Shown one piece after another: positions 218 to 57,572 of a stretch of DNA of 64,000 nucleotides; the stretch's first letter is position 1; each line of letters opens with the position of its first letter. The notes under the pieces are model-generated. The model saw nothing but the letters and a program-made list of their open reading frames with translations, had not been told where the DNA came from and searched no databases. The position numbers were made by a program, and so were the translations under genes. Location: IMG/VR virus record IMGVR_UViG_3300029544_000001; one strand, written 5' to 3'. This DNA is from a virus. Its lineage: Duplodnaviria; Heunggongvirae; Uroviricota; Caudoviricetes.

Positions 218-243
218 AGGGCTCACCCGATAATCATTGGGGG
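218..243. repeat. IS left terminal inverted repeat
   Basis: matches the reverse complement of 1612-1637 at about 21 of 26 positions. Confidence 0.65.
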
Positions 244-1226
244 TATGCATAAATCTTAGCCAGTCTAAAGAGGAAGAATTTCTCATCCACTACTCCTCTT
301 AATGCGGTTCTGAATTGTTTGATTTTCGCATTAAAGGATTCAGCCGCCGCATTAGAGGATCTTTTATTATAAAAGTTAAGAATATCATCATAATGTTCAT
401 AGAAGGTTGCTGCAATTACATTGAAAGCATGAAAGCCTGCCTCTTCCACTTTATTATACCATTTAGCCATACTCAATCTTGCCGCATCTTTGATTGTATT
501 TTTGGCAAGAATCATTCTGAGTGAATGACATAATCCATACGCCTGTCCCAATTCCGGATATTCCTTAAAAAGAATTTTGGCTCTTTGTTTTTGTGCTGGG
601 GTCCATTTTTCGGAGGATTTAAACAGCAGATAGCGGCTTCTTGCCAACAGTTCTTTCTTTGAATCTCCATTTTCATATCTCATAGGCACATATGATTCCC
701 CTTTCTGCTTTGCTTCTTCCATCTCATCATTGGCTTCCTGGATTGCGTCCCAGCGGAGTTTGATACGCATTTCCTGCACTGCATCGCAAGCTAATTTCTG
801 GATGTGGAACCGGTCTATTACACGAGATGCCTTGCGGAAACAGAAGCGGACTATTTTACGCATTGAGTCCGATAAATCAAGTGTCACTTCTTCTACACTG
901 TCCAACAGGTGTTCGGGAATATGGCGTAAAGCCGCTATGACCGTCTCTGACTTCGTCCCTGCAACAATGGCGACAAGGCACATCTCACGACCATGCCTGT
1001 CCCTGTTGGTTACTATTGTATAAAGGTCGCCATTCGACAGGGAAGTCTCGTCAATAGCCAGATTAGGTCCAATGTTCTCAGGAAAGACAAGCCACTCTTC
1101 CGCATGGCTCAACTCTTCCCAATTACGATAACCGCTTAGCACATCCTTGTATTGCTTCTCAAAGGTAGATGCGTCAATATGATAGAAATCATCAAGCGTA
1201 CGGCAGGTCACCGGGGATGTGTCCAT
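234..1226 (-). pseudogene. ISL3-family transposase, C-terminal DDE segment (orfB); frame-shifted relative to orfA at a T6A4 run, so either disrupted or needs a frameshift
   Basis: 330 aa; C-terminal ...NAAAESFNAKIKQFRTALRGV... is typical of ISL3 transposases; combined length ~440 aa matches an intact ISL3 transposase. Confidence 0.6.
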
Positions 1227-3995: not shown

Positions 3996-4193
3996 TTAAT
4001 AGTATTTGCGGAAAAATACTATTTGTGACGTTATGAACGAAAATAGAAATGTTAAAGCTATGCAGTAATTAGGAAGACCAAGCCAGCTAACAAATTCTGT
4101 GAGTGTACAAGCTATTGCCCATATACATAAGGCAATAACAGTTCCTTTTAATTCAATATAAAGTTTATCCATAATTATTTTACTTAAACACAT
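3996..4193 (-). CDS. small membrane protein (65 aa), uncertain
   Basis: hydrophobic ORF overlapping the next gene start by 14 nt. Confidence 0.25.
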   Translation of the reverse strand: MCLSKIIMDKLYIELKGTVIALCIWAIACTLTEFVSWLGLPNYCIALTFLFSFITSQIVFFRKYY

Positions 4194-4725
4194 TTAGAAA
4201 TGCCTTAATTGTCTGGCGCATATCATACACACACTGTGGAACAATGTCCTTTTCTGGAAGGCTATCAGCAAGTATCATATCACGCACCATAGTTGCTGAC
4301 ACGCCATCTTCACAAGTGTTTCTGGCAAGTAAAGATAGAGACACGTTATTCCTTAAAAGGAATCCTGGAAACCAAGATGTGATGGTCTCAAATCCATCAG
4401 AGTAATAGATTGTGAAATCAGATTGGTTGATTTTGCTAACAATAAACGAATAAAGATAAAAACCCCAATCGTGGCTGTTGTCAGATTCATCAGAAAGGTC
4501 AGCAAGCTCAACAATCTTCGTTTTTTCGTGAAGAGAATGGTCTTTAATCGCCTTTTCAACAAGTTGTTTTCGGATAGTCCAAGGTATCGGATTCCGTTTT
4601 GAGAGTTTATCTATTGAGCCAATAATAACTAAAACTTGCTCATTCTCGTCACAAGCCTTCTTTATCAGCTGTAGGTGTCCATTGTGTATAGGCTGGAACC
4701 GAGCCAATATTACTCCAGTTTTCAT
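4180..4725 (-). CDS. nadM: nicotinamide-nucleotide adenylyltransferase, NadM-type (nucleotidyltransferase HxGH superfamily)
   Basis: N-terminal ARFQPIHNGHL matches the archaeal/bacterial NMNAT GRFQPFHKGH motif; C-terminal GVSATMVRDMI matches the ISST..R-type motif; 181 aa. Confidence 0.65.
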   Translation of the reverse strand: MKTGVILARFQPIHNGHLQLIKKACDENEQVLVIIGSIDKLSKRNPIPWTIRKQLVEKAIKDHSLHEKTKIVELADLSDESDNSHDWGFYLYSFIVSKINQSDFTIYYSDGFETITSWFPGFLLRNNVSLSLLARNTCEDGVSATMVRDMILADSLPEKDIVPQCVYDMRQTIKAFLNVFK

Positions 4726-5152
4726 AATTACTATTTTTATCGAAAATAATTAGTTACTACTTCCATTTCTGGACACTTTAAGTTGATTGTTCACAACTCT
4801 ATTAGGATAATTTGTTGAGGAAGCAGGGAGAGTCGAAGACCCAGCCACTTTATAGCAGGACATTAACAGTGTGTTACTTTCATTTACCCATACTTCCTTT
4901 ACAAATGACAGCTTTTTGAGCAAAATATTTACCTTTGCAAGCAATATGACTAAACCTACGGGTAAATCGAATCATTTTAGCCAAGAGCGAAGAGACAATA
5001 TAGTTGCAATCAGTGTTGTCCTTCAGACAGTTATAGCTGTCATATCTCTTTTGATTCAACTTTGCGAATAGCCGCTGTCATTTTGATTTCACAACCATAT
5101 TAGCCCTATGGTTGTCATCTTTGGGGAGTAATTTCAACTCCCCATTTTTATG

Positions 5153-5223
5153 AGGCCCATGCAGGAATCGAACCTGCGATCATGGTTTTGCAGACCATTG
5201 CCTTACCACTTGGCTAATGAACC
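5153..5223 (-). tRNA. tRNA-Cys (GCA)
   Basis: 71 nt; acceptor GGTTCAT/ATGGGCC (two GU pairs), anticodon loop CTGCAAA, T-arm GCAGGTTCGATTCCTGC. Confidence 0.85.
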
Positions 5224-5306
5224 AGATAGCTGGAAGTTTCACAACTTCACAGCTTCGCGGAAAGAAAAATAAGCTAATCCAATAACAATCTTTTTAACCT
5301 TAAATG

Positions 5307-5378
5307 CGCTCTTAGATGGATTTGAACCACCGACCTGATGATTAACAGTCATCTGCTCTACCACTAAGCTATAAGAGC
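5307..5378 (-). tRNA. tRNA-Asn (GTT)
   Basis: 72 nt; acceptor GCTCTTA/TAAGAGC, anticodon loop CTGTTAA, T-arm GGTGGTTCAAATCCATC. Confidence 0.85.
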
Positions 5379-5423
5379 AAATGATGTCTTTATCTCCCTA
5401 ACCGACCCATCCCCTTTCGGCGA

Positions 5424-5447
5424 TGGTGGAGGAATCGAACACTCCCA
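5424..5447 (-). other. tRNA-like fragment: T-arm-like hairpin GGGAGTGTTCGATTCCTCC followed by ACCA; no complete cloverleaf could be folded
   Basis: GGTTCGATTCC-type T-loop motif without recognisable D or anticodon arms. Confidence 0.3.
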
Positions 5448-5470
5448 TAAAGACATCTAACATACCGATT

Positions 5471-5920
5471 CTACCAACAGCTCGGTATCACACTCCCGGA
5501 CCAACGATTCCGGACAGGGCTTAGTTTACTTGTATATTGACTTGTCTCAACATAACCTGCATGTTCGTTCCCTTGTACTTCGGGCTTGTTGTACTCGGTA
5601 ATGGAGTCGAACCATTCTTTTCTGCTCGAAAGGCAGATGTCCTTTCCGATAGACGAACCGAGCAAACAGCCGGATTTTTCACCGGCTTTTGGCCAAAAAG
5701 TTTTAACTTTGCAGCCGTAATGGAAATTTATTTGCTGTTGCTTGTCCTCCTTGTACGGGAAATTCGCGCCCTCGTAAAGGAAATCAAAAGACGATAAGCC
5801 GTCCGTAGGACGTAAAAACAACAATTGAGCTTTCTTGCCATTTGGAATGTGAAATACGATCGGTTCACAGGCATTCAAGCATTTTACATAATTTCCATCC
5901 AGAGGAATAAAGGGGTGCAA
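5471..5920 (-). CDS. hypothetical protein (149 aa), uncertain
   Basis: ORF with non-repetitive composition between tRNA genes. Confidence 0.3.
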   Translation of the reverse strand: MHPFIPLDGNYVKCLNACEPIVFHIPNGKKAQLLFLRPTDGLSSFDFLYEGANFPYKEDKQQQINFHYGCKVKTFWPKAGEKSGCLLGSSIGKDICLSSRKEWFDSITEYNKPEVQGNEHAGYVETSQYTSKLSPVRNRWSGSVIPSCW

Positions 5921-6028
5921 AACATTTTTCCAAGATGTTTCTTAACAACCCATGCAGCCATCCCAGCGAAACCAAAGTTGGAAACTACATGGATCGCACC
6001 CCTCCTCTTTCCAATTTATTTATGAGTT

Positions 6029-6820
6029 TTAATTCGTCATCTTCAGAAATTCTGGAATTACCCCATACAGCGGTGTTTTTCCGTCCCATTTATCAATAAA
6101 CTGTTTATATAGAATTTCTTTAGTTAACCCTTTCGATGTGATAAGAGCCTGTTCGGTTTTTAATCTTTCCAGTTCGTTTTGCTTTTTCTGCTCTTCGATT
6201 TTCTGATCAATAACGGAAATATTAGTGTTAACCTCGTTTCTATTATCAATCTTTTCCCGGACTCGATCGCTAAATTCTAATTGGGCTGAAAATGACTTCA
6301 GGTCCAATCCTCTATCTTTAAATTCCGCCCTAACAATATCCTCCAGCTTCTTCTCAAAAGCTAAAGAACCCCCATCAGCCATAAGTGTATCTGTTTTATA
6401 TTTCCGGCTTTCTTCTTTAATAAGGTCGTAAATACGTGGTTCCAGAATATTGTCTTCCAAAGATCTCATAAATCCATCTCCGTTTCCGATATGTTTATTA
6501 TCAAAAACAACGTCAATTGCCTTGTCTTTGATAACTCTATATGAGTATAACGGAGTAGCATTGAACTCTGTATTGTCAGCAGCTTTTAGGGTAACTGATT
6601 TCTGAAATCCTCCACGCTGTTCAAACAATGGCACCTGAAACAACTCTGTTCCCCATTCCCATGTGGAAACTTTTCCGGATACAATCTTAAAATCTTCTTT
6701 ACCTTCCTTACCATAATTCTCCATAAGGACACCGGCATAGTTAGGAGCAACACGCTCACAAGATGAAAAAATCACTGTTGCCATAAGAGCAACCAACATA
6801 AACTTAATCTTCGTTTTCAT
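6029..6820 (-). CDS. lipoprotein (signal peptide + lipobox VIFSSC) with coiled-coil C-terminal half
   Basis: N-terminal MKTKIKFMLVALMATVIFSSC; 263 aa. Confidence 0.55.
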   Translation of the reverse strand: MKTKIKFMLVALMATVIFSSCERVAPNYAGVLMENYGKEGKEDFKIVSGKVSTWEWGTELFQVPLFEQRGGFQKSVTLKAADNTEFNATPLYSYRVIKDKAIDVVFDNKHIGNGDGFMRSLEDNILEPRIYDLIKEESRKYKTDTLMADGGSLAFEKKLEDIVRAEFKDRGLDLKSFSAQLEFSDRVREKIDNRNEVNTNISVIDQKIEEQKKQNELERLKTEQALITSKGLTKEILYKQFIDKWDGKTPLYGVIPEFLKMTN

Positions 6821-7025
6821 GTTTTTTGATAATTAATTTAATGATGTTAATAACTGGATAGCAAACCCCAAAACATATAGCAATTCCCAACCAAGCGTCA
6901 ACATGATTGAATACTCTATTGCCTATGAATAAGACCGCTATCATAAAAAAGAATTGTTCTATATACTTTTTCATCGCATATTAAGTTTGGTATATTTCAA
7001 AGAACTCTTATTGACTTATGTCATT

Positions 7026-7111
7026 GTGCCGCAAACAGGAGTCGAACCTGCATTATCCATTCGGACAAATGGATTTTAAGTCCATCGTGTCTACCAATTC
7101 CACCATTGCGG
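7026..7111 (-). tRNA. tRNA-Leu (TAA), long variable arm
   Basis: 86 nt; acceptor GCCGCAA/TTGCGGC, anticodon loop CTTAAAA, T-arm GCAGGTTCGACTCCTGT. Confidence 0.85.
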
Positions 7112-7362
7112 CATCATCTTATCAAGCCTTAAAGAACAAAGAAAAAATCCGGATAAAGAATGAGTTTCGGGTTTTCATCTTCTCCAACTCTTTATTGTCT
7201 TTTCTCAATTTCTTAATGTCTGCTTTATTGGAAGACACGTGTGTTTTAGCTCTCGTATTCAACTCCACTAAGGACTGAACCAATTGTCTCAAATTGGCAA
7301 TAATATTTGCCCTTTCAGATATGATTTGCTCTTTCATACTATAATTAATTTAATTAGTTAGT

Positions 7363-7435
7363 GGCGGAGAGCCGGACTCGAACCGGCGACCTCTTGGTTA
7401 TGAGCCAAGCGAGCTACCAACTGCTCCATCCCGCT
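7363..7435 (-). tRNA. tRNA-Met (CAT) with defective acceptor stem (5' AGCGGGA versus 3' TCTCCGC); possible pseudogene or 1-nt indel
   Basis: D-arm, anticodon arm (CTTGG-CTCATAA-CCAAG) and T-arm (GCCGG-TTCGAGT-CCGGC) are canonical; only 4 of 7 acceptor pairs form; restoring GCGGAGA would give 7 of 7. Confidence 0.6.
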
Positions 7436-27649: not shown

Positions 27650-28918
27650 TTACAATATTGCCACTAAAGTATTGTACGCTGCTCTTCTGGTCAAAATAGC
27701 ATTCTGCATACAACCTATTGTCAAATAACCTTCAATTTCTTTACTCTTAGATTTATTTCGATTAGCCTTTACGTTCCGACCAATACCTCTAACAACACAA
27801 CCATCCGGCTTATCCTTAACATAGCCAAGGCCACCAACTTTATGTTTCCCAGTTTCAACGGCTCTAAGGCAATCCATTACGAATTTATTCAATTCATTAA
27901 TATCAACCCGAACATTACATACTGGAAGGGTCTGAGTCGCCCAACTATATTCTCCATTGCCTTTATATAAATATCGGTTAACCGAATCCACAGCCTTCTT
28001 CAACGTAATACCACGTTTTCTGATGGTTCTTGATTCTATTTCTTTCTGGAAGGTTTTAAGACGATTGGGAGAGAAAGAAATCATACTTCCCTTAATGCTG
28101 AAACCTAGAAATTTGAACCACTTGTCCATAGTCAGGTACTCTACTTTCTTGGGATTCAAATTCATTGATTTTTCGGCCAATCTCTTTTGTAAAATGGTCA
28201 TAGCCTTTTCATAGTCCGGACCAACGAACAACATATCATCCGAATACCTTACGTAAAACCCATTCAATTGGGACAGTTCATCATCCAAGCTATATAGCAA
28301 CACGTTGGCTAACCAGCTTGCTACTGCGCATCCTTGTTTAAGTGATTGATATTTCTCATGCAGTTCGTTGTTCTCATCGAAATACAATCCGCAATGATAG
28401 TATTTTCTTAATACATCAATTAACACAGAGTGACCATACTTAGCTTCCACCTTATCAAAAGCTGCGTCAATAAACCGGATAGGAACAGTGTCGAAATATT
28501 TACTTAAATCAGATTTCCAGCCCACATAACCATCACTTTTCATGTCAACAATTGTGTGACTTACTTCCAGAACCACTTTACCGCAACCAATACCGACCTG
28601 ATAAGATTTACAAGCAGGATGAATCATCTCTGGCATTAAATCAAATAGCAAATCATTCGCGATGCTTAGGATTATACGATCAATAGGTTCGTTGACATAT
28701 ACAGTACGAAACTCTCCGTTATCCTTCGGAATTTGTGCAATATGTGGTGGTGTTATTTGATATTTACCATTCAACATAGCTTCTGCCATACGAATTCTGG
28801 TTGGTTCTTCTGTCAGTTTGATAAGTTCGCTCTTCCGAATATCCTTCAGAACGCCTTTCTCAATTGCTTTTGTCCATCTATTAATGTCGAAGAACATTGT
28901 AAGAATCTTATCTTTCAT
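27650..28918 (-). CDS. reverse transcriptase (RT domains 1-7; class unresolved)
   Basis: IPKDNGEFRTVYVNEPIDRII, DLSKYFDTV, QGCAVASWLANVLL, YVRYSDDMLFVG, NPKKVEYL, FLGFSI. Confidence 0.75.
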   Translation of the reverse strand: MKDKILTMFFDINRWTKAIEKGVLKDIRKSELIKLTEEPTRIRMAEAMLNGKYQITPPHIAQIPKDNGEFRTVYVNEPIDRIILSIANDLLFDLMPEMIHPACKSYQVGIGCGKVVLEVSHTIVDMKSDGYVGWKSDLSKYFDTVPIRFIDAAFDKVEAKYGHSVLIDVLRKYYHCGLYFDENNELHEKYQSLKQGCAVASWLANVLLYSLDDELSQLNGFYVRYSDDMLFVGPDYEKAMTILQKRLAEKSMNLNPKKVEYLTMDKWFKFLGFSIKGSMISFSPNRLKTFQKEIESRTIRKRGITLKKAVDSVNRYLYKGNGEYSWATQTLPVCNVRVDINELNKFVMDCLRAVETGKHKVGGLGYVKDKPDGCVVRGIGRNVKANRNKSKSKEIEGYLTIGCMQNAILTRRAAYNTLVAIL

Positions 28919-36662: not shown

Positions 36663-37355
36663 TTATGCAGCCATTCGCGCATCATATTCCGCACGCTTTT
36701 GAGCATTTCCCAGAACTTCCCATGCTGCATTTACCTCTTGCATCTTTTCATTGGAACCACCGGCATCAGGATGAGCAGATTTAGCAGCTTGTTTGTATGC
36801 AGCTTTAATTTCCGCTTCCGTAGCATCATGCTTCACACCCAAGATTTCATAATAGTTAGCGGCTTTTGCGACTACTTCTTCAAAGTTCAAACGGAATTTC
36901 AGAGCATCGAAAGACGCTTTTGTAGCAGCATGGATTTTCTTCTTAAAATCACGCGCTGCACAATCCAGGTCTTTCTTTGTAGGCACCAAACCAATACGGC
37001 TCCATACACTTCCCTCAACATCCCACTTCTTTGACACTTTGCAATCACTTGTACGCACTATGATTTCAGCCGGTGTACCGCTACGCAATTTGGATGCAAT
37101 ACCACCATTATCTTCACGCAGCCCAGCTTCCACCGCTTTCACAGTCCAGAACGTAGCTACCACATTCTTCCACACGCGGAAAATCTCGTCCTGTGTCTTA
37201 TCCTTTGGCGTGTATTCATCACCGGCAAAATTCAGTCCTGAATAATGCGTTTCTCCGTCACGGTTTACACTCTTATACACCAAAGTTACGCCTACCAACT
37301 CGTTTGCGTTCAAGTTCTCAAATTGTACACTGTTATACCTACTAATTGTTCCCAT
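36663..37355 (-). CDS. J-domain (DnaJ-like) protein with unknown N-terminal domain
   Basis: C-terminal YYEILGVKHDATEAEIKAAYKQAAKSAHPDAGG...AWEVLGNAQKRAEYD with the HPD tripeptide. Confidence 0.65.
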   Translation of the reverse strand: MGTISRYNSVQFENLNANELVGVTLVYKSVNRDGETHYSGLNFAGDEYTPKDKTQDEIFRVWKNVVATFWTVKAVEAGLREDNGGIASKLRSGTPAEIIVRTSDCKVSKKWDVEGSVWSRIGLVPTKKDLDCAARDFKKKIHAATKASFDALKFRLNFEEVVAKAANYYEILGVKHDATEAEIKAAYKQAAKSAHPDAGGSNEKMQEVNAAWEVLGNAQKRAEYDARMAA

Positions 37356-37390
37356 GATTACTGTTTTTTAGGAATTTTCTGCAATAGCGC

Positions 37391-37430
37391 ATTGTAGGCA
37401 ATCGGGGAATCGAACCCCGACCTACCAAAA
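37391..37430 (-). other. tRNA-like T-arm minihelix (TCGGGG-TTCGATT-CCCCGA) at the left edge of the 1.7 kb non-coding region
   Basis: perfect 6-bp T-stem with canonical T-loop; no complete tRNA could be folded. Confidence 0.35.
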
Positions 37431-39102
37431 TAGGAACGCACCACCGAAAACGTTTACACGCTTTCGATTGCGTTAAAGCCCAATCAGAGCATACTGGACA
37501 TTCACCTATCCAGCACACTCTATGTACAACTTTTTGCCCGTCACTAACAGCGCAACGGAGCCGTGCGCCCTGTGTATGAGTGCTCACCAACTGCAACCAA
37601 ACCGATTGAATTGCAGCTTTTTACATACGCTTTCGCCTATGTGGTAGGTAATTTCCATCGTTACCGTTAAAGCACACTTTTGGCATACACTTTTTCACTG
37701 TTAGGGCTGCGTTGCGTTGGTGATTACATATATACGCAAGGGCATATATCTTTCTCAGTTCGCATTAGGGGCAGATTTTCACACCTTTGTGTAAACATCC
37801 GTTTTTCGGTATGCAGTTGGCAACTGGGCACAACTATGGCACAAAGTTTACACTTTTCCCTTTTGCTGCATGGAGCTACGCACCTATGGCACGCTTTTGA
37901 AGCAGACTTATGTATATAGCTCCCCCATAGTGCCAGCGACGGTTTGCATGACAATCTTTAATAACTGACCATTACAGTTATGGGTATTCTTTTCCCGTTC
38001 ACAAAACATCCCGTTTTATGTCTGAGCGTGCGCTTTTGCTTTCGCTTTCGCACTCCTTTTGCTTTTATGTACTACTTTCTTTTGTCCGTTTCTTACTTCT
38101 TGTTTTTACGGTTATTAATTACGTTTATTATCTCGTATCTGTTTGCGGTTTTCGCTTTTTGTAGGTTTACAGATAAAACCAAAACGGAAAGTAAACACTT
38201 TATCAAGTAGCCGTTATCTTAACTTGACGTTGCAAAGATATGGCAAACATTTGGAACTGCAAAGTATTTTAGCAAAAAACTTTCATTTTAAGGCTAAAAT
38301 AATTTGCAAACACTTGATTTTCAGATACATAAAAACATCAACAAAACAGATAAATCTATAAATAGCTGATAATCAACAAAATAATCATCTCAACACGTGC
38401 GCGTGTACGCGGGGTTATTTATTAGGGCAAATCGTGACACACATACACACACATATACGCGCGGGATGTTGTTACCTGGATGCAAAAAGGAACGGGAACA
38501 AATCACATACACAAAAGGGTAAATTTGTAATAATTTCAAAAGAGTATCAAAAACAAAAGAATAGGCAAAACAAAGAACAAAAGCACATTTGTTTCACTTT
38601 TGTATATTAGTGAAACAATATAATTAACTGATTTACAGCAATATGGCAATAAAAAATATAAAAAAAAGAAGGCAGAGCCGGTCAATTATGGAGCGAATAC
38701 CGTATATATAATCCGACCTGATTTTTCAATCTCGTTTTTTCAAAAGTCGATCATAGTACAAAAAGCCAATTCTCTTCCAGACCACGTTATTCAATACAAT
38801 AAAATTATCTCCAATTTCTAACATCAATTTTATAATATATCGAATCTGGAAGTAGAGATTTCGTAATTATCCCAGCATCAATTTATTAACTTTATTTTTT
38901 ATAATACAGAGAAATAATTATTTTCCAATATATTCAAATTGACAACGATATAAAAATTCAATATATAAGTTTTCTGATTTTTTTCAGCCACCTATTTTTT
39001 CAGTCTCGTTTTGTGGTAATTAAGCTAAATTTTTATATCCAAATTGATGTTTATCAAAAAATCATATTACATTTGCCTAACAATTGATTATTTTATCCAA
39101 AT

Positions 39103-40017
39103 ATGAAAACTAAAAAACAAGTAGAGCATTTTCTAAGAAAAAGAAAATATAAGTCTGAAATTGATTTTAAAGGAATCAGTTCTTATTGCAAAACAGAATA
39201 TAATATTAAGCTGCATGTACCTTCCAGTTATTCAGACGATCCTGAATCTCTCGATTACGCTACATTTGCCAACTGGTTTGACAAAGGATTTGGAGCTGGA
39301 GATGCAGTAAAATGGAACGATTCTATAGGTTTGGTACAAGAAGGGAATGTGAATACAGTTTTAATATGCCTTAGAATTGACGGAAACACGCCTAATTTCG
39401 ACAAAATAACAATTCCTGTAGACATTATAACCCCAGCCGGAGAAAATGCTTTAAATCGCCTCTATTTAGTTTTAGATGAAAATGGCCAGGAATTTGGCAA
39501 CCCATTTTTCGTAATAAGCGATAAATATATTCCCAAATCATGTGATTTAGTATGCTTCCATAATCATAAAACTGGTCAAGAAGGATATGGGGTAGTAAGA
39601 CTTGTAGATAAATCCTCTGGAGACATTGTTATGTATTGCTATGTTATCAAAGGGGAACCAGTTAAATACAGCATGAACGAGTATTTGGGAAAAATAGATG
39701 ATTTTTCGTTCACAACTTTCAAGCCAGCGGATTATCAAAGAAAGGCTCTGGATGTAGAATTAGCTAAGGTCGGTAAAACATGGAATCATTTTCTAAAACG
39801 AATTGAGCCTTTGAACATGAAAGTAGCTACAGGAGAACGATACTGGTATATTACGGATAAGATGCAAGTTACTTCAGATGTGGAAAAAGGAACTGTAACA
39901 AGCAATAAACGTTATCTGGCAGGCAATTATTTTCGAAGAGAGAAAGATGCGATTAGAATACTGTCTGAAGAAATAGAAATTAGAAGAAACTTTTTAGCCG
40001 AACCCGAAATAAGATAA
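39103..40017 (+). CDS. hypothetical protein (isolated + strand gene)
   Basis: 304 aa. Confidence 0.45.
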   Translation: MKTKKQVEHFLRKRKYKSEIDFKGISSYCKTEYNIKLHVPSSYSDDPESLDYATFANWFDKGFGAGDAVKWNDSIGLVQEGNVNTVLICLRIDGNTPNFDKITIPVDIITPAGENALNRLYLVLDENGQEFGNPFFVISDKYIPKSCDLVCFHNHKTGQEGYGVVRLVDKSSGDIVMYCYVIKGEPVKYSMNEYLGKIDDFSFTTFKPADYQRKALDVELAKVGKTWNHFLKRIEPLNMKVATGERYWYITDKMQVTSDVEKGTVTSNKRYLAGNYFRREKDAIRILSEEIEIRRNFLAEPEIR

Positions 40018-40062: not shown

Positions 40063-41622
40063 TCATGGTTGTTCTGCCATCTTTTTGTTATAAAGCTCCT
40101 CCACATCACTTGCCTGATTTACCTGCACGTTATAGCTTATAATCTTACCAACTGACAACTGTTGAGGATGAAGTTTAACTGTATTTTTTTGAGGAAGCTC
40201 TTTCCATAGGGTTCTCAAATCTTCTACAGGCACCTTCGATTCGTTCGAGAAACGTTTAAGCAAATCTTCATAAGCAGCTTTCGTCACTTCTGATGGACGA
40301 GGTTGCTGATTACTTTCCCGTTCTTTCACAAACTCAATCATAAGCCATATTGCATACTCGGCGTCCGTCAACATATTCGTATCTTTTTCGGCGACTTGCC
40401 GGAGAGATTCAAGAAATATCAATCTGGAGGTTCGGTCCTCTACTCCTTTTCGTTTAATTTTTCTGGAAGATGAGGGAGATTGATTGATGTTTTTAATTTT
40501 ACTGGGAGTCACATAACATACAGGTTCTCCATTTTGCATCTTAACATCGAATCCAAAAATATTCTTCATGTCTTGTTCTGAAAGAGAGAAATCAGGATTG
40601 ATAGTTTTTAAATCATTCCAAGCACGGTAAAGAATATCTTTGAAATATTCAACTGGAATGTAATTATCTGGAGAGTCTTCATCATATTGCAAATATCCCC
40701 AAACTTCTCTTATTGCCATATCAAAATCATTATCGGCAAAATCTGGAAGGTTAATGATGGTTTCAAAATCAGAAGAAGAAAGATCTGGAAAAGATAAGTC
40801 ACGAGAATTGAACCATTCCAAAATCTTCATATCAGTTTCTTTATTAAACTCACTTCGTTCGTTATGATTCTCTTTATTCTCTATATTATCTATATATATC
40901 TTATTCTGTTGTTCAATATGAGCGGACCCTCGTTCAATATGAACACACCCTCGCTCATATTGAGCGCACCCTCGTTCATATTGAGCGGACCCCTGTTCAT
41001 ATTGAACGAGGTTAGATTGCTCTTTGACTACATTTTCTGATAGTTTTTCTATGTCTTCACCTTTTTCTTCGTCTATTTGCGAGGGTGTGTTCATATTGAG
41101 CGAGGGTGTGTTCATATTGAGCGAGGGTGTGTTCATATTGAGCGAGGGTGTGTTCATATTGAGCGAGGGTGTGTTCATATTGAGCGAGGTGTGTGGATAT
41201 TGACGAACGACATCGTTCAATATGGTCAATGGAATCGCTGAAATTGGACGTACCTCGCTATTTAAGCACAAGCCTCGCAGATATACCCATCCTTTATCTG
41301 ATATTTGAGAACTTACTTTATGTATTGCTCGTATCTCACTCCAATTTACATAGAATGTGCAAAGTGCCCCTTTATTTTGAGAACAGCTGATAAGATTAAG
41401 TTGCTTCAAGGTATCTATTGCCCGGCGTACTGAACTAATAGAAGTTCCCATGACGTCAGCTAGTTCTTTGTTGGATATGGCGCATGTTGTCTTATCTCCA
41501 TCCGTATAGCCTCTTCGTAACAGATGAAATAAAATCATAAAGCCATCACTGGATGTTAATGTTGCCATTGCGTATGGGATGCACTTCCAGTGGTTATCGA
41601 ATTTCTCGGAAAACGTACTCAT
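40063..41622 (-). CDS. putative replication initiator: N-terminal winged-helix/HTH domain, internal TPSLNMN x5 and QYERG(C/S)A repeats encoded by iterons
   Basis: 519 aa; N-terminal ...LRRGYTDGDKTTCAISNKELADVMGTSISSVRRAIDTLKQLNLI...; iteron arrays embedded in the ORF. Confidence 0.45.
   Translation of the reverse strand: MSTFSEKFDNHWKCIPYAMATLTSSDGFMILFHLLRRGYTDGDKTTCAISNKELADVMGTSISSVRRAIDTLKQLNLISCSQNKGALCTFYVNWSEIRAIHKVSSQISDKGWVYLRGLCLNSEVRPISAIPLTILNDVVRQYPHTSLNMNTPSLNMNTPSLNMNTPSLNMNTPSLNMNTPSQIDEEKGEDIEKLSENVVKEQSNLVQYEQGSAQYERGCAQYERGCVHIERGSAHIEQQNKIYIDNIENKENHNERSEFNKETDMKILEWFNSRDLSFPDLSSSDFETIINLPDFADNDFDMAIREVWGYLQYDEDSPDNYIPVEYFKDILYRAWNDLKTINPDFSLSEQDMKNIFGFDVKMQNGEPVCYVTPSKIKNINQSPSSSRKIKRKGVEDRTSRLIFLESLRQVAEKDTNMLTDAEYAIWLMIEFVKERESNQQPRPSEVTKAAYEDLLKRFSNESKVPVEDLRTLWKELPQKNTVKLHPQQLSVGKIISYNVQVNQASDVEELYNKKMAEQP
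40912..41011. repeat. iteron array 1: about 4.7 imperfect 21-bp direct repeats TTCA(A)TATGA(G/A)C(G/A)(C/G)(A/G)CCCTCG, next to an AT-rich stretch at 40871-40910
   Basis: units at 40912, 40933, 40954, 40975, 40996. Confidence 0.7.
41080..41205. repeat. iteron array 2: five perfect 21-bp tandem repeats CGAGGGTGTGTTCATATTGAG plus a degenerate sixth, inverted relative to array 1
   Basis: units at 41080, 41101, 41122, 41143, 41164; the reverse complement matches the array-1 unit TTCAATATGAACACACCCTCG. Confidence 0.8.
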
Positions 41623-43730: not shown

Positions 43731-44318
43731 TTAGAGACGGATAGAATCGAATATAGAATTTATTTCATCTTCTCTAATACAGATGTATATTTTAGTTATT
43801 TCAATGTTAGAGTGATTGAATATCCTGTTCAATAGTAACAATGCTTCTGACTTGTTTTCGCTTGTATCATAAACATATCGTCCAAATGTTTTTCTAAAAG
43901 TATGCGTAGAAAAATTCTCTATATCCAATTTATATTTAGCCTTCCATTCTTTCATTATCCGATTAAGATATTGGGAAGAGATAGATACTCCTGTAAATTT
44001 GCTTTTAAATATTAATTCATTCGGATTAGGGCGTTTAAGCAATATATAAAGTTCCTCTATTCTCGTTTGAATACTTAAATTAAATGGGATTTTTCGTACC
44101 TTTCCAGTTTTCTTCTCAATTTTAGTCAATGAACCTTTATGGAGAATATCAGCCCATGCTAAAGACAATACATCTGATACTCGTAGTGCAGTGCAGAATG
44201 CCAGTCGAGCATATAGTTCCCATAAATATTGCCGATCCTTATGAAGAAGGCGTAGTAATTTCTTATATTCTTCCATAGGAAGATAATCACTTTTGGTTAA
44301 CTGATTTTTCTTTGCCAT
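43731..44318 (-). CDS. tyrosine-type site-specific recombinase, catalytic domain only (no N-terminal core-binding domain)
   Basis: ALRVSDVLSL (Arg I), HTFRKTFGRYVY (His-x-x-Arg), ITKIYI (catalytic Tyr); only 195 aa. Confidence 0.6.
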   Translation of the reverse strand: MAKKNQLTKSDYLPMEEYKKLLRLLHKDRQYLWELYARLAFCTALRVSDVLSLAWADILHKGSLTKIEKKTGKVRKIPFNLSIQTRIEELYILLKRPNPNELIFKSKFTGVSISSQYLNRIMKEWKAKYKLDIENFSTHTFRKTFGRYVYDTSENKSEALLLLNRIFNHSNIEITKIYICIREDEINSIFDSIRL

Positions 44319-44439: not shown

Positions 44440-46398
44440 TTAACCATTCAAAAATTCACAGAATTCTTCAATTGATAAAATTGGTATCCCCAATAATTTG
44501 GCCTTGGATATTTTTGATGAGTTGGCAGATTTGTCCTTCACCACCAAATGTGTTGTTTTTTTAGACACCCCACTAACAATTTTTCCTCCTTCGTTGGTGA
44601 TTACTTCTTCAAGATTACTATCTCGAAATCCTGATACACAGATGGACAAACCTTTACATTTACCTTCCAGCACAACGGTCTTTGGGGACAATTTGTAAGG
44701 TATTTTAGTTTCCTCTAAAAAGGCCATAAATGGAAAATACCCTAACAATAAGTTTTGTACAGTTATAGGACAATTTTTAAAGTCTTCGCTTTGAACATCC
44801 GGTTCGTGATTGATATACCACCCTTGACAGAACGAGCATAAATCCTCATCATCCATTTCATCCAATATTTTTTGGGCTTTTATTTTTCCTATTCCTTTAA
44901 AGCAATCGCTGGCTTGCATTAAAGTCGCCAAATCAACTCCTTGCATGATTTTTCTGTTATTCTCCAATATTATATTTGAAATACTGTCTCCGAATCCTTC
45001 GATTTTTATCAGATCGTTAAAAGTAACGTTAAGAATCGCCGGTATAGAAGTAAAGCCTGCATTGAATATTTTGGATAATGTTTCTTCTCCCATATTTTCA
45101 GCCCCACATGTCAAATAGAAAAATATAATTTTAGCTAATTGAACACCTGGACAACTAGGATTAGTGCAACACAGTTCTATGTGATTCTCATTCCACATAG
45201 TCGATGAACCACAATGAGGACACTCTGACATTTCATCCCATAATTTTTCTTGTTCTTCTTGTGTTGCTGGGCTAAGAGTTGAGAGAATCTTAGGAATTAC
45301 CCCTCCAGAACGGGTAACTAATATTTCAGCCCCCTTCGCTATTTCGTGATCATTAATCCAACCGGCATTATATCCAGTAGGATTTTCCATGTTACAATCT
45401 CCAGTATCAACCATTTCAATATTGACCACAGGTTTAAGGGCACCTGACTTACTGACTTTCCATACAATACCCTTAACTGTTGTTTCAAAAGATTCTGTAA
45501 AATCTGGATGTTTGTAGGCAATAGCATATAATGGATTTCCAGATGTTTGATGTCTGCCAATAACTTCCCATAAGCGCAAATCATCAACATAAATTACAAT
45601 ACCATCAATTGGATATATCTTACTCCACTCTTTGAATAAATTCATCAGTAGCTCTTCATTCAGTTCATCTATAAAAGCGAAATGGTAAAGATGCTCTTGT
45701 TGATAGATATTACAAATAGTTTCTATCAGACTATGGAAGTTGTTATAATCATGTAGGGAACTCTCATCCACTCCATATCTGAAAAAAGAAGCGTGTTCAA
45801 GATAATCACACGGCTCATCTCTATTTAAAAGACCGGCAGCTGTATTACGTGGTGATTTAAAAATATCTCCTGTGAATTTAGAACGTTTTCCATGAAAATG
45901 TTGCTCCCAATCACTTCTGTTGATGACAAATTCTCCAAAAGTATAATGAAAACTGCTGGCCGGATTATAACATTGAGTGGATGCTTGATAATGGTTAGTA
46001 CAATCTTGTCCTTCATTTTCTATCCCGCCACGAGAATATGCCTCACCTGTTAATTCATTATATAGTAGAGAAAGACCATCCAGCTTAGGCATACATACTA
46101 CACCTGCATTTCCTTTCAAGCCTAAAGACATATACCATTTTTTAAGTTCTGATATATCCTTTACTTTATTTAAAGATTTCATTGGGATTGGCAAAGCCCG
46201 TTTTCGGGTTTCAGACACAAAAGCGGGTTCGGTATGTTTGAACCATTCATTGTCTGGATCAAGTGTTTTTAATAGTTCTATTTCTGCATCATACTCCGCA
46301 TCTGAGATTTCTGGCGTACCCATACGATACATTTTATTGTGTCGCTTGACCCTATCAAGCAACGCATCTTTTGTTTCAACTGTAAAATTAAGCTCCAT
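44440..46398 (-). CDS. ligA: NAD+-dependent DNA ligase (LigA-type)
   Basis: adenylation motif MPKLDG (KxDG), Cys4 zinc finger CPHCGS...CTNPSCP, C-terminal BRCT-like segment; 652 aa. Confidence 0.8.
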   Translation of the reverse strand: MELNFTVETKDALLDRVKRHNKMYRMGTPEISDAEYDAEIELLKTLDPDNEWFKHTEPAFVSETRKRALPIPMKSLNKVKDISELKKWYMSLGLKGNAGVVCMPKLDGLSLLYNELTGEAYSRGGIENEGQDCTNHYQASTQCYNPASSFHYTFGEFVINRSDWEQHFHGKRSKFTGDIFKSPRNTAAGLLNRDEPCDYLEHASFFRYGVDESSLHDYNNFHSLIETICNIYQQEHLYHFAFIDELNEELLMNLFKEWSKIYPIDGIVIYVDDLRLWEVIGRHQTSGNPLYAIAYKHPDFTESFETTVKGIVWKVSKSGALKPVVNIEMVDTGDCNMENPTGYNAGWINDHEIAKGAEILVTRSGGVIPKILSTLSPATQEEQEKLWDEMSECPHCGSSTMWNENHIELCCTNPSCPGVQLAKIIFFYLTCGAENMGEETLSKIFNAGFTSIPAILNVTFNDLIKIEGFGDSISNIILENNRKIMQGVDLATLMQASDCFKGIGKIKAQKILDEMDDEDLCSFCQGWYINHEPDVQSEDFKNCPITVQNLLLGYFPFMAFLEETKIPYKLSPKTVVLEGKCKGLSICVSGFRDSNLEEVITNEGGKIVSGVSKKTTHLVVKDKSANSSKISKAKLLGIPILSIEEFCEFLNG

Positions 46399-48423: not shown

Positions 48424-49761
48424 ATGAATGTAATTAGTGCAGAAACAACATTTCACGGCACTCCTTTAGAAAGCATATTTAAAACTAGCAAAAAAACTAT
48501 TCAAGAATATGTTAGGGAGATTGACCGTCATTGTAGATACAAATCCATTCAATCCCAAGTAACACGCGGGGTTGTTTTAGATGATCGTGGCCCACTGATA
48601 GATTTATACGAAGCATGTGTAGAGCAGGATGCTCATTTACGTGCAGTATTAGAAACTGTAGAATCACAGATTATAGGCGAACGATACATGTTGGCAAGAC
48701 AAAATGAACGAGGAAAATATATTAAGGATGTAGAAGAAACCAAAAAGATACAAGGTTCTCAATTCACTAAAATCATAAAAGGTATTGTTGAAGCCAAATG
48801 GTACGGTTACACCTTATTAGAAATAATGCCTGATATTAATCCTTTAACAGGAAAGCTAGCTGAAGTAAATATTATTGAGAGAAGAAATGTATTGGCAAGT
48901 CAATTACGAGTTGTGCAAAGACAAGGGCAGTGGAATCCTGGATGGGATATTGCTTCATCGCAATATTCCAAGAATTATATACTTATTGATAATGGTGATT
49001 TGGGGCTATTCTCTGCAACTACTCCAACTATCCTTGCAAAAAAATTCACTCTTGCTAATTATGTTAATTTTAGTCATACTTATGGCCAGCCTATCATACA
49101 TGGTAAGACTGAATCAGAAAGCATTCAAGATCGACAACGATTAGCACAAAACATTGCAAATGCAGCTCAGAATAAAATAATAGTTACAGGATTGAACGAT
49201 GATATTGACATTAAGACATTTACAATGTCAAATTCCGAACACATATATACTAGTTTAATAAATTTTGCCAATACAGAAGTTTCTAATCTGATAGTTGGCT
49301 CTGAATCTATGGCTGGAGCAACCCAATCTTATGTTGGATCAACAAATGCTCACCAAGACATTTTTCGGGAGCGCATAGAGATGTATCGCGGTTTCATTGA
49401 AAATGTAATGAATGAAGAGATCGTTCCTAGATTAGTATCTATGGGATATATCAAGCCGGGATTAGAATTCAAATATGCCAACCGTGTAGAAATGAGTAAT
49501 AAAGACAAGATTAGCTTATATTCTTTTATTACAGATAAGTATGAAGTATCAGCAGATGAAATCGAAAAAGAATTTGGTATTGTCGTAGGGAAACAATTTA
49601 ACGCTATATCGGAAATGGCAAGTAATAGCGGGAGTATAAATGGAAGTTCCAATGATAGACGCATTATGTCCGATGAAGAATATTACAAAAGATATGGGCA
49701 TAGACGTGGCGAACGAAAAAATTCAAGCAACGTTGAAAATTTTCTAATGGAAGGAGAATAA
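48424..49761 (+). CDS. portal protein (Mu gp29/DUF935-like)
   Basis: 445 aa; first gene of the rightward head module, followed directly by a Mu-F-like gene. Confidence 0.5.
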   Translation: MNVISAETTFHGTPLESIFKTSKKTIQEYVREIDRHCRYKSIQSQVTRGVVLDDRGPLIDLYEACVEQDAHLRAVLETVESQIIGERYMLARQNERGKYIKDVEETKKIQGSQFTKIIKGIVEAKWYGYTLLEIMPDINPLTGKLAEVNIIERRNVLASQLRVVQRQGQWNPGWDIASSQYSKNYILIDNGDLGLFSATTPTILAKKFTLANYVNFSHTYGQPIIHGKTESESIQDRQRLAQNIANAAQNKIIVTGLNDDIDIKTFTMSNSEHIYTSLINFANTEVSNLIVGSESMAGATQSYVGSTNAHQDIFRERIEMYRGFIENVMNEEIVPRLVSMGYIKPGLEFKYANRVEMSNKDKISLYSFITDKYEVSADEIEKEFGIVVGKQFNAISEMASNSGSINGSSNDRRIMSDEEYYKRYGHRRGERKNSSNVENFLMEGE

Positions 49762-56681: not shown

Positions 56682-57572
56682 TTATTTCCAATCTACAAAA
56701 TTCAGTAAGTGTATTTTTGAGCAATCCTTAATTATTTGGTTTGTTTTACCACTTCTTTTTATGTTTACCAGATGATTTATGTCTTGTTCAAGCTCTTTTT
56801 GCCTATTTATTGATATTTTACCAAGTATATAATCAATAACACCAATAATGCCACTAACATATTGCCGGGATTGATTATCGACATTTGCTGGATGTACCTT
56901 TACGCCCAATGGCAATGTGATATTATACAAACAACTACCATGTGCACATTTGTTTCTGATAAACATGATTGTTTCAAGATAATTCTTGAATATTCCTATT
57001 GTACAACCGTATTTGTTTGCTATCTGTAATTGAACATCTTTATCTCGCAAACTTTTGTACAACATGCAAACATTGCCGATTGTCATAAATTCCAACGTTT
57101 TCCATGCAGGTGCATATCGGTCATTTATGTGAGTTTTATGATGACGCAGAATAACCGGATTCTTAGAAATCTGTGCATACACCATATCGTCAAATGTATT
57201 GATAAAAGATGAAAGCATAATTGCAGGATCTACAAACCATGTAGGAGAATTTTTATAATGGTTTGATATAATATATGTGATAGTTGTGCGGATATTGACT
57301 TCTATTCTATTTAATGCGTTCAATAGAACCCTTCTCAAATCATAATCGAAATAATACAAATCCACAATTTCCTTAAAAGAAGTGCCTTTACACAGTTTAT
57401 GGTTGCGATTCCTTAGACTGGGAAAAGTTTTTTCAAACGGAAAAGAATAGAATCCCAATCTATAATACCCCACATCTAGTAAAATCTCCTTTGCCTTCTC
57501 TTCATCCTCAAAGACCATACCATGTTCTTTGAGTTTATTTATCTGTTCTTCTATATTCAATGCGTGTTTCAT
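56682..57572 (-). CDS. Abi_2-family abortive infection protein (AbiD/AbiF-like) inserted antisense in the tail module
   Basis: N-terminal MKHALNIEEQINKLKEHGMVFEDEEKAKEILLDVGYYRLGFYSFPFE matches the conserved Abi_2 start (..EQI..LK..G....DE.KA...L..I.YYRLS.Y); 296 aa. Confidence 0.7.
   Translation of the reverse strand: MKHALNIEEQINKLKEHGMVFEDEEKAKEILLDVGYYRLGFYSFPFEKTFPSLRNRNHKLCKGTSFKEIVDLYYFDYDLRRVLLNALNRIEVNIRTTITYIISNHYKNSPTWFVDPAIMLSSFINTFDDMVYAQISKNPVILRHHKTHINDRYAPAWKTLEFMTIGNVCMLYKSLRDKDVQLQIANKYGCTIGIFKNYLETIMFIRNKCAHGSCLYNITLPLGVKVHPANVDNQSRQYVSGIIGVIDYILGKISINRQKELEQDINHLVNIKRSGKTNQIIKDCSKIHLLNFVDWK

Follow-up and report, generated by a model that had tools for sequence, protein, structure and literature searches.

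A candidate replication origin within the gene of a putative initiator in a Bacteroides prophage

The 64,000-nucleotide stretch analysed here (IMG/VR record IMGVR_UViG_3300029544_000001, hereafter the window) is a low-GC (~36%) myovirus-like Bacteroides prophage. Its minus strand carries the gene of a 519-aa putative replication initiator, the start of which overlaps the stop of an upstream 62-aa open reading frame (ORF) by 4 nt. The protein is made up of a winged-helix N-terminal domain (N-domain), a disordered linker encoded by repeats and a C-terminal domain (C-domain), and the repeats form two arrays, A and B, the second of which adjoins an AT-rich tract. The features of the locus were taken from the ORF list, from an AlphaFold2 (AF2) model with its predicted local distance difference test (pLDDT) values, and from Tandem Repeats Finder (TRF), and are listed below.

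40063-41622, minus strand: putative replication initiator gene, 519 aa (ORF list)
41200-41565, minus strand: N-terminal winged-helix DNA-binding domain, aa ~20-141, proposed iteron-recognition module (AF2)
41194-41225: candidate weak sites GGATATTGACGAA and TCGTTCAATATGG, degenerate and core-like, just past array A (sequence and repeat search)
41079-41203: array A, five perfect and one degenerate 21-bp unit, palindromic cores at 41089-41185 (TRF)
41012-41078: inter-array spacer, 67 bp, 70% AT
40911-41011: array B, ~4.7 units, the five palindromic cores of which keep a 21-bp phase (TRF and core mapping)
40862-40910: AT-rich tract, candidate DNA-unwinding element (DUE), 82% AT with a loose ATTCTCTAT repeat, abutting array B (TRF 40867-40907)
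40837-41166, minus strand: coding region of the predicted disordered linker, aa 153-262, holding both arrays, the spacer and the AT-rich tract
40066-40836, minus strand: C-terminal domain, conserved family core, aa 263-519, pLDDT >90

Arrays A and B are the two strongest tandem arrays in the window. For array A, TRF reports a period of 21, 6.0 copies and 97% matches at a score of 229, in agreement with the five perfect 21-bp units and degenerate sixth described in a first-pass annotation of this DNA; array B is found at 40911-41005 (period 21, 4.5 copies, 84% matches, score 106), and the next array scores 59. The same annotation had counted about 4.7 copies in the opposite orientation some 70 bp away. 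Our mapping places array B at 40911-41011, pairs the two arrays as inverted repeats (arms 40913-41007 and 41089-41183, 95 nt, 77% complementary) and measures the gap at 67 bp. Both arrays lie within the 519-aa ORF, as annotated, with array A encoding TPSLNMN five times and array B encoding QYE(R/Q)G(C/S)A four times. We considered an assembly artefact as the source of the arrays and rejected it, as they recur across many independent assemblies, including a complete B. ovatus chromosome.

Each unit consists of a 13-bp palindromic core, GYTCAWWWTGARC, and an 8-bp asymmetric GC-rich spacer, which reads ACACCCTC in array A and takes the complementary, GAGGGTGT-like form in array B. The core follows the pattern G[C/T]TCA-WWW-TGA[A/G]C with ATA or TAT at its centre, and the first units of array B share the central ATA with array A. 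Because the cores are palindromic and the spacers complementary between A and B, what is inverted from one array to the other is mainly the 8-bp spacer. Exact matches to the strict core number 10 in 64 kb, against 0.07 expected; all fall at 40911-41185, on the 21-bp grid and within codons 146-238 of the ORF, and allowing one mismatch brings no further match. From the last core of array A to the first of array B the distance is 94 bp (8.95 helical turns), which is invariant in every relative examined, including the complete chromosome. Given this distance and a grid of 21 bp, or two turns, all sites therefore lie on one face of the helix. The sequences GGATATTGACGAA and TCGTTCAATATGG fail the strict pattern even with one mismatch and may be extra weak sites.

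An AT-rich stretch next to array B had also been annotated, and we place it at 40862-40910, so that an AT-rich candidate element directly flanks the repeats. No 40-bp duplex in 39-43 kb is less stable than the one it contains, which ranks in the window's top 0.09%. A tract rich in AT and coding for 'IY(I/N/K)..K' recurs in this position, between the repeats and the C-domain, in L007, L010, L014, L016, L017 and most family representatives (L-numbers denote related viral contigs from IMG/VR, 19 in number).

The AF2 model, which was built from a 34-sequence alignment (a single-sequence model reaches a pLDDT of only 35), has two domains with pLDDT >90, at aa ~20-150 and 263-519. The first of these bears out the winged-helix N-terminus of the first-pass annotation. 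Between them, the linker at aa 153-262 stays below a pLDDT of 50, and this disordered part is exactly the part encoded by the repeats. The candidate sites are thus found inside an initiator-like coding sequence, between its DNA-binding domain and a presumed effector domain. The protein belongs to a small family, as a search of 1.84 billion representatives yields 63 clusters (50% identity, E<=1e-3); the C-domain is conserved in all 63, and the linker ranges from ~100 to 330 aa. Current annotations call members of this family only 'hypothetical' or 'HTH' protein.

The assignment as a putative replication initiator agrees with the best family matches, PHROG 186, 391, 270 and 678, which are also found across the family: phrog_186 is a DnaD-like helicase loader, and phrogs 391, 678 and 270 are O-like or replication initiation families. 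For the N-domain the best of these is phrog_186 (7e-7, covering aa 5-96 only), which is matched by 9 of the 34 family members. The best BFVD match is a family member named 'Replication initiator A family protein'. In Pfam, the N-domain has matches to HTH_Crp_2, HTH_36, Phage_rep_O and Phage_rep_org_N, all of them sub-threshold, with sub-threshold Phage_rep_O matches in 4 of 34 family members. Its fold matches 4pta, 5kbj and 7ur0 no better than it matches generic regulators. The C-domain has no relative in Pfam (even at E<=10), NCBIfam, or PDB sequence or fold searches; we infer that it is an effector for oligomerisation or for the recruitment of a helicase or helicase loader.

Conservation at synonymous sites allowed us to ask at which level the repeats are constrained. 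For this purpose the gene in the window was compared with those of L006 and L007, which are 75-82% identical in protein. At third codon positions, array A reaches 95-98% identity and array B 79%, against 63% for the N-domain, 53-54% for the C-domain and 59-64% for the inter-array spacer, the last being on par with the coding domains. The difference between arrays and domains is significant (Fisher p=2e-8), also for array B alone (p=0.011). Moreover, one DNA unit read in opposite orientations gives the unrelated peptides TPSLNMN and QYERGCA, both within the predicted disordered linker. Selection therefore acts on the DNA of the arrays and not on the peptide.

The type of repeat also changes together with the N-domain. 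Between L010 and the window, the C-domain is 97% identical and the flanking DNA 94-96% identical, yet ~600 bp from codon ~55 to codon ~255 cannot be aligned; in L010 this segment is replaced by an N-domain of 56% identity and a different 21-mer with cores of the TGTCA-WWW-TGACA type. L006 and L007, in contrast, are more diverged overall (N-domain 82%, C-domain 75%), yet they keep the same type of N-domain and the same 21-mer. The repeat type hence co-varies with the DNA-binding domain independently of the rest of the protein, and, as L010 illustrates, the C-domain can be exchanged independently of the N-domain. When 2.9 M IMG/VR viral contigs were searched for the iteron dimer, only 12 contigs had it, all of them with the cognate gene region and each in one place. 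As sequence comparisons, these results speak for a site that acts in cis and is bound by the N-terminal domain which the same gene encodes.

Array A is a hypervariable variable-number tandem repeat (VNTR) encoding (TPSLNMN)n. Among 120 homologues more than 90% identical, it has ~2-11 units, with 10 copies in the complete chromosome CP041395.1, whereas array B, the copies of which are degenerate but stable in number, mostly has 4 (range 3-5, counted as peptides). Because copy number varies on each of four sequence backgrounds, changes in array A must be recurrent. From the identity of the five units, the first-pass annotation had proposed a very recent expansion, and the ~2-11 copies in near-identical relatives fit expansion and contraction that are both recent and recurrent. 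Counts of 8-11, the highest, were mostly obtained in isolate genomes that have contigs of megabase size, and L008, L009, L011 and L015, four of the 19 related contigs, begin or end inside array A. Collapse of short reads may exaggerate the low counts, and the five units in the window are possibly an underestimate. In the relative P0047 and in the last A unit of L006 (3518-3545), units of array A read GCTCAATATGAGCGGACCC and encode SLNMSGP. They look like units of array B in reverse complement, which suggests gene conversion between the inverted arrays.

More distant members of the family carry other repeats in the same part of the protein. L014 and L016 (39-51% relatives) have eight CTATGCA-N5-TGCAnAGG palindromes at spacings of 24-75 bp, 5 of the 7 spacings being 31-33 or 43 bp. 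These eight dispersed sites are identical between the two contigs, while a perfect 15-bp VNTR, CCTATGCAGAAAATG, counts 3 copies in L014 (3410-3455) and 8 in L016 (3409-3530). By sequence, the pattern of a stable core of sites with one expanding array has recurred independently in this pair. In L017-19 there are at least 12 ATCTGCTGCAAAT-type sites in both orientations, and ~25 further family representatives have a peptide repeat of their own in mid-protein, usually followed by the AT-coded 'IY(N/K/I)..K' before the C-domain. At least four initiator/iteron specificities are seen.

Taken as a whole, the locus is in our judgement likely to be the prophage's replication origin, placed within the gene of its own initiator. 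The order of N-domain, iterons, AT-rich tract and C-domain is the lambda O-type layout recognised by the first-pass annotation, and it is common to gene 38 of SPP1, which encodes G38P. Under this reading, dimers of the 519-aa protein would bind the 13-bp palindromic cores through the N-terminal winged helix, and the bound dimers, all on one face of the DNA, would build a wrapped nucleoprotein complex. Strain from this complex would open the adjacent 82% AT tract at 40862-40910, after which the C-terminal domain would recruit a replicative helicase or loader. The latter is probably the host's; no phage helicase, primase or polymerase was found in 64 kb. Array B, being stable and adjoining the AT tract, is together with that tract probably the core origin. 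Array A, because of its perfect units and variable copy number, is probably an accessory and slippage-prone set of sites, comparable to the extra distal iterons of Stx phages.

Several points weigh against an origin here. The N-domain falls short of Pfam membership, with 17.7 bits against a cut-off of 28.7 for Phage_rep_O (PF04492) and 17.8 against a gathering threshold of 23.3 for Phage_rep_org_N (PF09681). When its profile (26 sequences) is compared with lambda O by hhalign, the match is weak (14.7% probability, E 0.0018), although the alignment of aa 4-96 with 21-121 is topologically sensible. The winged-helix fold is generic, and its structural neighbours are mostly transcription factors. 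No adjacent helicase or loader gene, equivalent to lambda P or SPP1 G39P/G40P, was found. GC skew, which the first-pass annotation had proposed to test for an inflection, gives no signal at the locus: it forms only a plateau over 38-44 kb, uninformative as an origin marker, and the cumulative minimum at 48565 is the switch of divergent transcription from minus-strand to plus-strand genes. The window leaves out about a third of the phage, which measures roughly 96 kb, and another origin could be located in that part. Finally, binding, melting, helicase recruitment, firing and thus initiation at this locus are what we infer from the arrangement, helicase recruitment purely so because the C-domain has no known relative.

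One alternative takes the repeats as operators and the protein mainly as a transcription factor acting within its own gene, as an autoregulatory roadblock or a lysis-lysogeny switch, with no origin firing. It can draw on the structural and PDB-sequence neighbours of the N-domain, which are mostly of MarR, CRP, ArsR or GntR type, and on one homologue with the source name 'putative GntR-family transcriptional regulator'; in addition, the DNA-level constraint and the co-variation, as sequence patterns, would point to self-binding and not to initiation. However, 10-15 phased sites with a conserved AT-rich tract in mid-gene are the architecture of an origin and not of an operator, and no core sites occur in the upstream promoter region. 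The PHROG matches are specifically to initiator families, and the gene keeps a conserved 260-aa C-domain that is unrelated to any ligand-binding domain of regulators. We therefore regard pure regulation as unlikely. Regulation is also no exclusive alternative, as known iteron systems combine autoregulation and origin function.

Plasmid-style maintenance during an extrachromosomal phase, with the arrays serving either as iterons for copy control or incompatibility (handcuffing) or as a partition centromere to which a TubR/ParB-like winged-helix protein binds, is quite improbable. The P1 incC and incA arrays are a precedent for two separate arrays, many contigs of ~94-116 kb could be circular episomes, and there is a weak profile match to TubR (6tey, E 0.019-0.19). 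Against this, no ParA, TubZ or ParM NTPase was found beside the gene, among 47 ORFs of the window scanned with Pfam or PHROGs, or in the called genes of L020. The element has no match among 72,556 plasmid records and is integrated in complete Bacteroides chromosomes such as CP041395.1, and centromere-binding proteins are small and lack a 260-aa C-domain.

An action through structure is very improbable, whether as a cruciform or single-stranded DNA hairpin (a priming or nicking signal) or as an mRNA hairpin that throttles translation. Because the two arrays are inverted, they have the potential for a long hairpin, and the 291-nt region indeed has strong predicted folding, at -74 kcal/mol as single-stranded DNA (z = -13.6) and -111 kcal/mol as mRNA (z = -11.5). 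Such a hairpin, however, follows automatically from inverted arrays, and the inversion is specific to this lineage: the arrays of L010 are direct, and L014 and L016 have dispersed single palindromes. Since the inverted arrangement is not conserved, the feature shared by the family is multiple sites and not a long stem. A hairpin could be an add-on to origin melting in this lineage. Least credible is a role at the protein level only, as a disordered linker of variable length without any function of the DNA in cis, since the predicted disorder, the ~100 to 330 aa across the family and the freely varying copy number that would suit it are set against synonymous conservation that is strong in the arrays and absent from the intervening spacer, an exact two-turn grid of palindromes, two arrays in which a common DNA unit gives unrelated peptides, and a repeat type that switches along with the DNA-binding domain.

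If the locus is the origin, a bolder extension can be formulated, which we hold to be doubtful: an iteron VNTR within the gene would serve as a fast-evolving replication rheostat and, with the N-domain, as a specificity cassette, joined to a C-domain that is a novel adaptor to the host replisome. Slippage in array A may alter how many initiator sites the origin has and, at the same time, how long the initiator's linker is. Exchange between the arrays, and swaps of the winged helix with its iterons as in L010, may create new replication-incompatibility types. Competing or co-resident Bacteroides prophages of this abundant lineage may in this way diversify their origins much as immunity regions diversify, and the relative-less C-domain may represent a new kind of adaptor for the replisome of Bacteroidota hosts.

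From 48.4 kb onwards, the plus strand of the window bears structural genes, namely those for portal, protease, sheath, tape measure and hub, and these are preceded by a long minus-strand block with dUTPase, NAD-ligase, a short tyrosine recombinase, DUF2400, a methyltransferase, a reverse transcriptase and five tRNAs. Complete Bacteroides chromosomes hold near-identical integrated copies, for example B. ovatus CP041395.1 at ~0.52 Mb, where the initiator gene occupies 522,412-524,076. Homologues of the 519-aa protein occur in Bacteroides ovatus, xylanisolvens, thetaiotaomicron and faecis and in Caudoviricetes metagenome-assembled genomes, many of them on contigs of ~94-116 kb, and the whole phage measures roughly 96 kb. 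Searches by megablast and tblastn found no match in phage and plasmid collections, a scan of GTDB representative genomes gave no confirmed relative, and IMG/VR scans with the distant family representatives P0130, P0144 and P0141 returned nothing. A scan for sigma-70 promoters and terminators gave no excess over shuffles, with a model ill-suited to Bacteroides promoters, and Rfam found only the five tRNAs in the window.

Close to the initiator gene, a 304-aa ORF at 39103-40017 (+) converges on it. This synteny is kept in relatives of 39-47% identity, with counterparts of 302-314 aa in L014 and L017, and the sole family match of the ORF, sub-threshold, is to a cap-snatching-endonuclease model. 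Next to it, ~1.75 kb without long ORFs (37355-39100) contains small repeats at 38031-38065 (CGCTTT-type), 38106-38130 and 38437-38455, of which the 12-bp repeat is kept in relatives (e.g. L001 6567-6601), and a change in GC-skew slope from about -0.22 to about 0. At 36663-37355 (-), ~3 kb from the initiator gene, 230 aa are encoded for a protein whose C-terminal part is a DnaJ (J) domain (Pfam 1.3e-19). Host DnaJ and DnaK remodel the O-P-DnaB complexes of lambda and also activate P1 RepA, and the phage J-protein could serve this candidate origin.

Further from the gene, the tyrosine recombinase at 43731-44318 (-) has 195 aa, consists of the catalytic domain only (Pfam Phage_integrase 2e-21) and keeps its place beside the NAD-ligase gene among relatives; instead of being the integrase, it may serve in dimer resolution or inversion. 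The reverse transcriptase has 422 aa at 27650-28918 (-) and matches Pfam RVT_1 (3.6e-20) and phrog_1423, and Rfam gave no intron RNA for it. The five-tRNA cluster (Cys, Asn, Glu, Leu, Met) with a nearby nucleotidyltransferase occupies 5152-7434 (-) and 4180-4725 (-). This nucleotidyltransferase resembles nicotinamide-nucleotide adenylyltransferase and could be paired functionally with the NAD-dependent ligase (44440-46398). An Abi-like gene at 56682-57572 (-) (phrog_2158, 6e-46) stands antisense within the plus-strand tail module and resembles moron or defence cargo. An ISL3-family transposase at 234-1226 (-) (Pfam DDE_Tnp_ISL3 4e-49) marks an apparent insertion sequence (IS) in or beside the prophage. 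This transposase and a Portal_Mu match had raised Mu-like transpositional replication as a candidate, which we rejected because the transposase is a 330-aa enzyme of the ISL3 IS type.

Literature and database searches returned no paper or record describing this locus, and a preprint on a crAssphage phage-plasmid is unrelated. To our knowledge, the origins of Bacteroides phages and prophages are essentially unmapped. The principle is already textbook: the locus extends the lambda O and SPP1 G38P design to Bacteroidota and adds no new principle. The initiator family is uncharacterised, and its C-domain is an orphan. This family is widespread in human-gut Bacteroides, in the four species named above. 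A defined origin with its cognate initiator would give a common lineage of gut prophages a testable replication module and possibly a part for Bacteroides vectors, and the family would offer a natural set of orthogonal initiator/iteron pairs, with at least four specificities. The hypervariable 21-bp VNTR of array A is usable as a strain marker and accounts for the breaks at this gene in assemblies of these phages.

Among known systems, iteron plasmids and the P1 replicon (RepA, RepE, Pi) differ in design. Their iterons of 17-22 bp lie outside the rep gene, are asymmetric and are bound by Rep monomers with two winged helices, whereas here the model shows one winged helix only, and the sites are intragenic and have palindromic cores. 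The protein does not belong with the iteron-plasmid Reps, having no Rep_3 or RepA_N match in Pfam, and the element is an integrated myovirus-like prophage with nothing like it in the plasmid collection. In SPP1, oriL lies inside gene 38, so that repeats in direct orientation, as well as an AT-rich DUE, stand within the gene of the origin-binding protein (PMC6316719). The best N-domain PHROG match, the DnaD-like helicase loader phrog_186, adds to this likeness. SPP1 differs in its adjacent G39P and G40P and its second origin oriR, neither of which was found in this window. The sub-threshold score for Phage_rep_org_N (PF09681) and the phrog_186 match likewise do not make the protein a DnaD-like replisome organiser, and no DnaD/DnaB_2-type C-terminal domain was detected.

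For lambda, the differences concern the proteins and the number and layout of sites. Homology to lambda O is not demonstrable, given the Pfam and hhalign scores above, the two C-domains are unrelated, there is no P-like loader gene downstream, and the host is Bacteroides and not an enterobacterium. Where lambda has one set of four sites, two arrays are present here (5-11 plus 5 sites) with inverted spacers, on an exact 21-bp grid, and one of them is a perfect and highly variable VNTR. The likeness lies in the design. Lambda has its iterons and an AT-rich tract in the middle of gene O, and Stx phages have 6 iterons rather than 4, with 13 aa added (PMC7466680). In both systems the origin, a candidate one in the Bacteroides prophage, falls in the middle of the initiator gene, in the stretch that links an N-terminal DNA-binding domain to a C-terminal effector domain. 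Several dyad-symmetric sites of roughly 20 bp (spaced by 20-24 bp in the lambda annotation) are followed by an AT-rich tract on their promoter-distal side, and the number of iterons varies between relatives, as it does among lambda and Stx phages, altering the length of the protein. In lambdoid phages, the N-domain and iterons act together as a specificity cassette, and the comparison with L010 points to the same exchangeable unit in this Bacteroides family.

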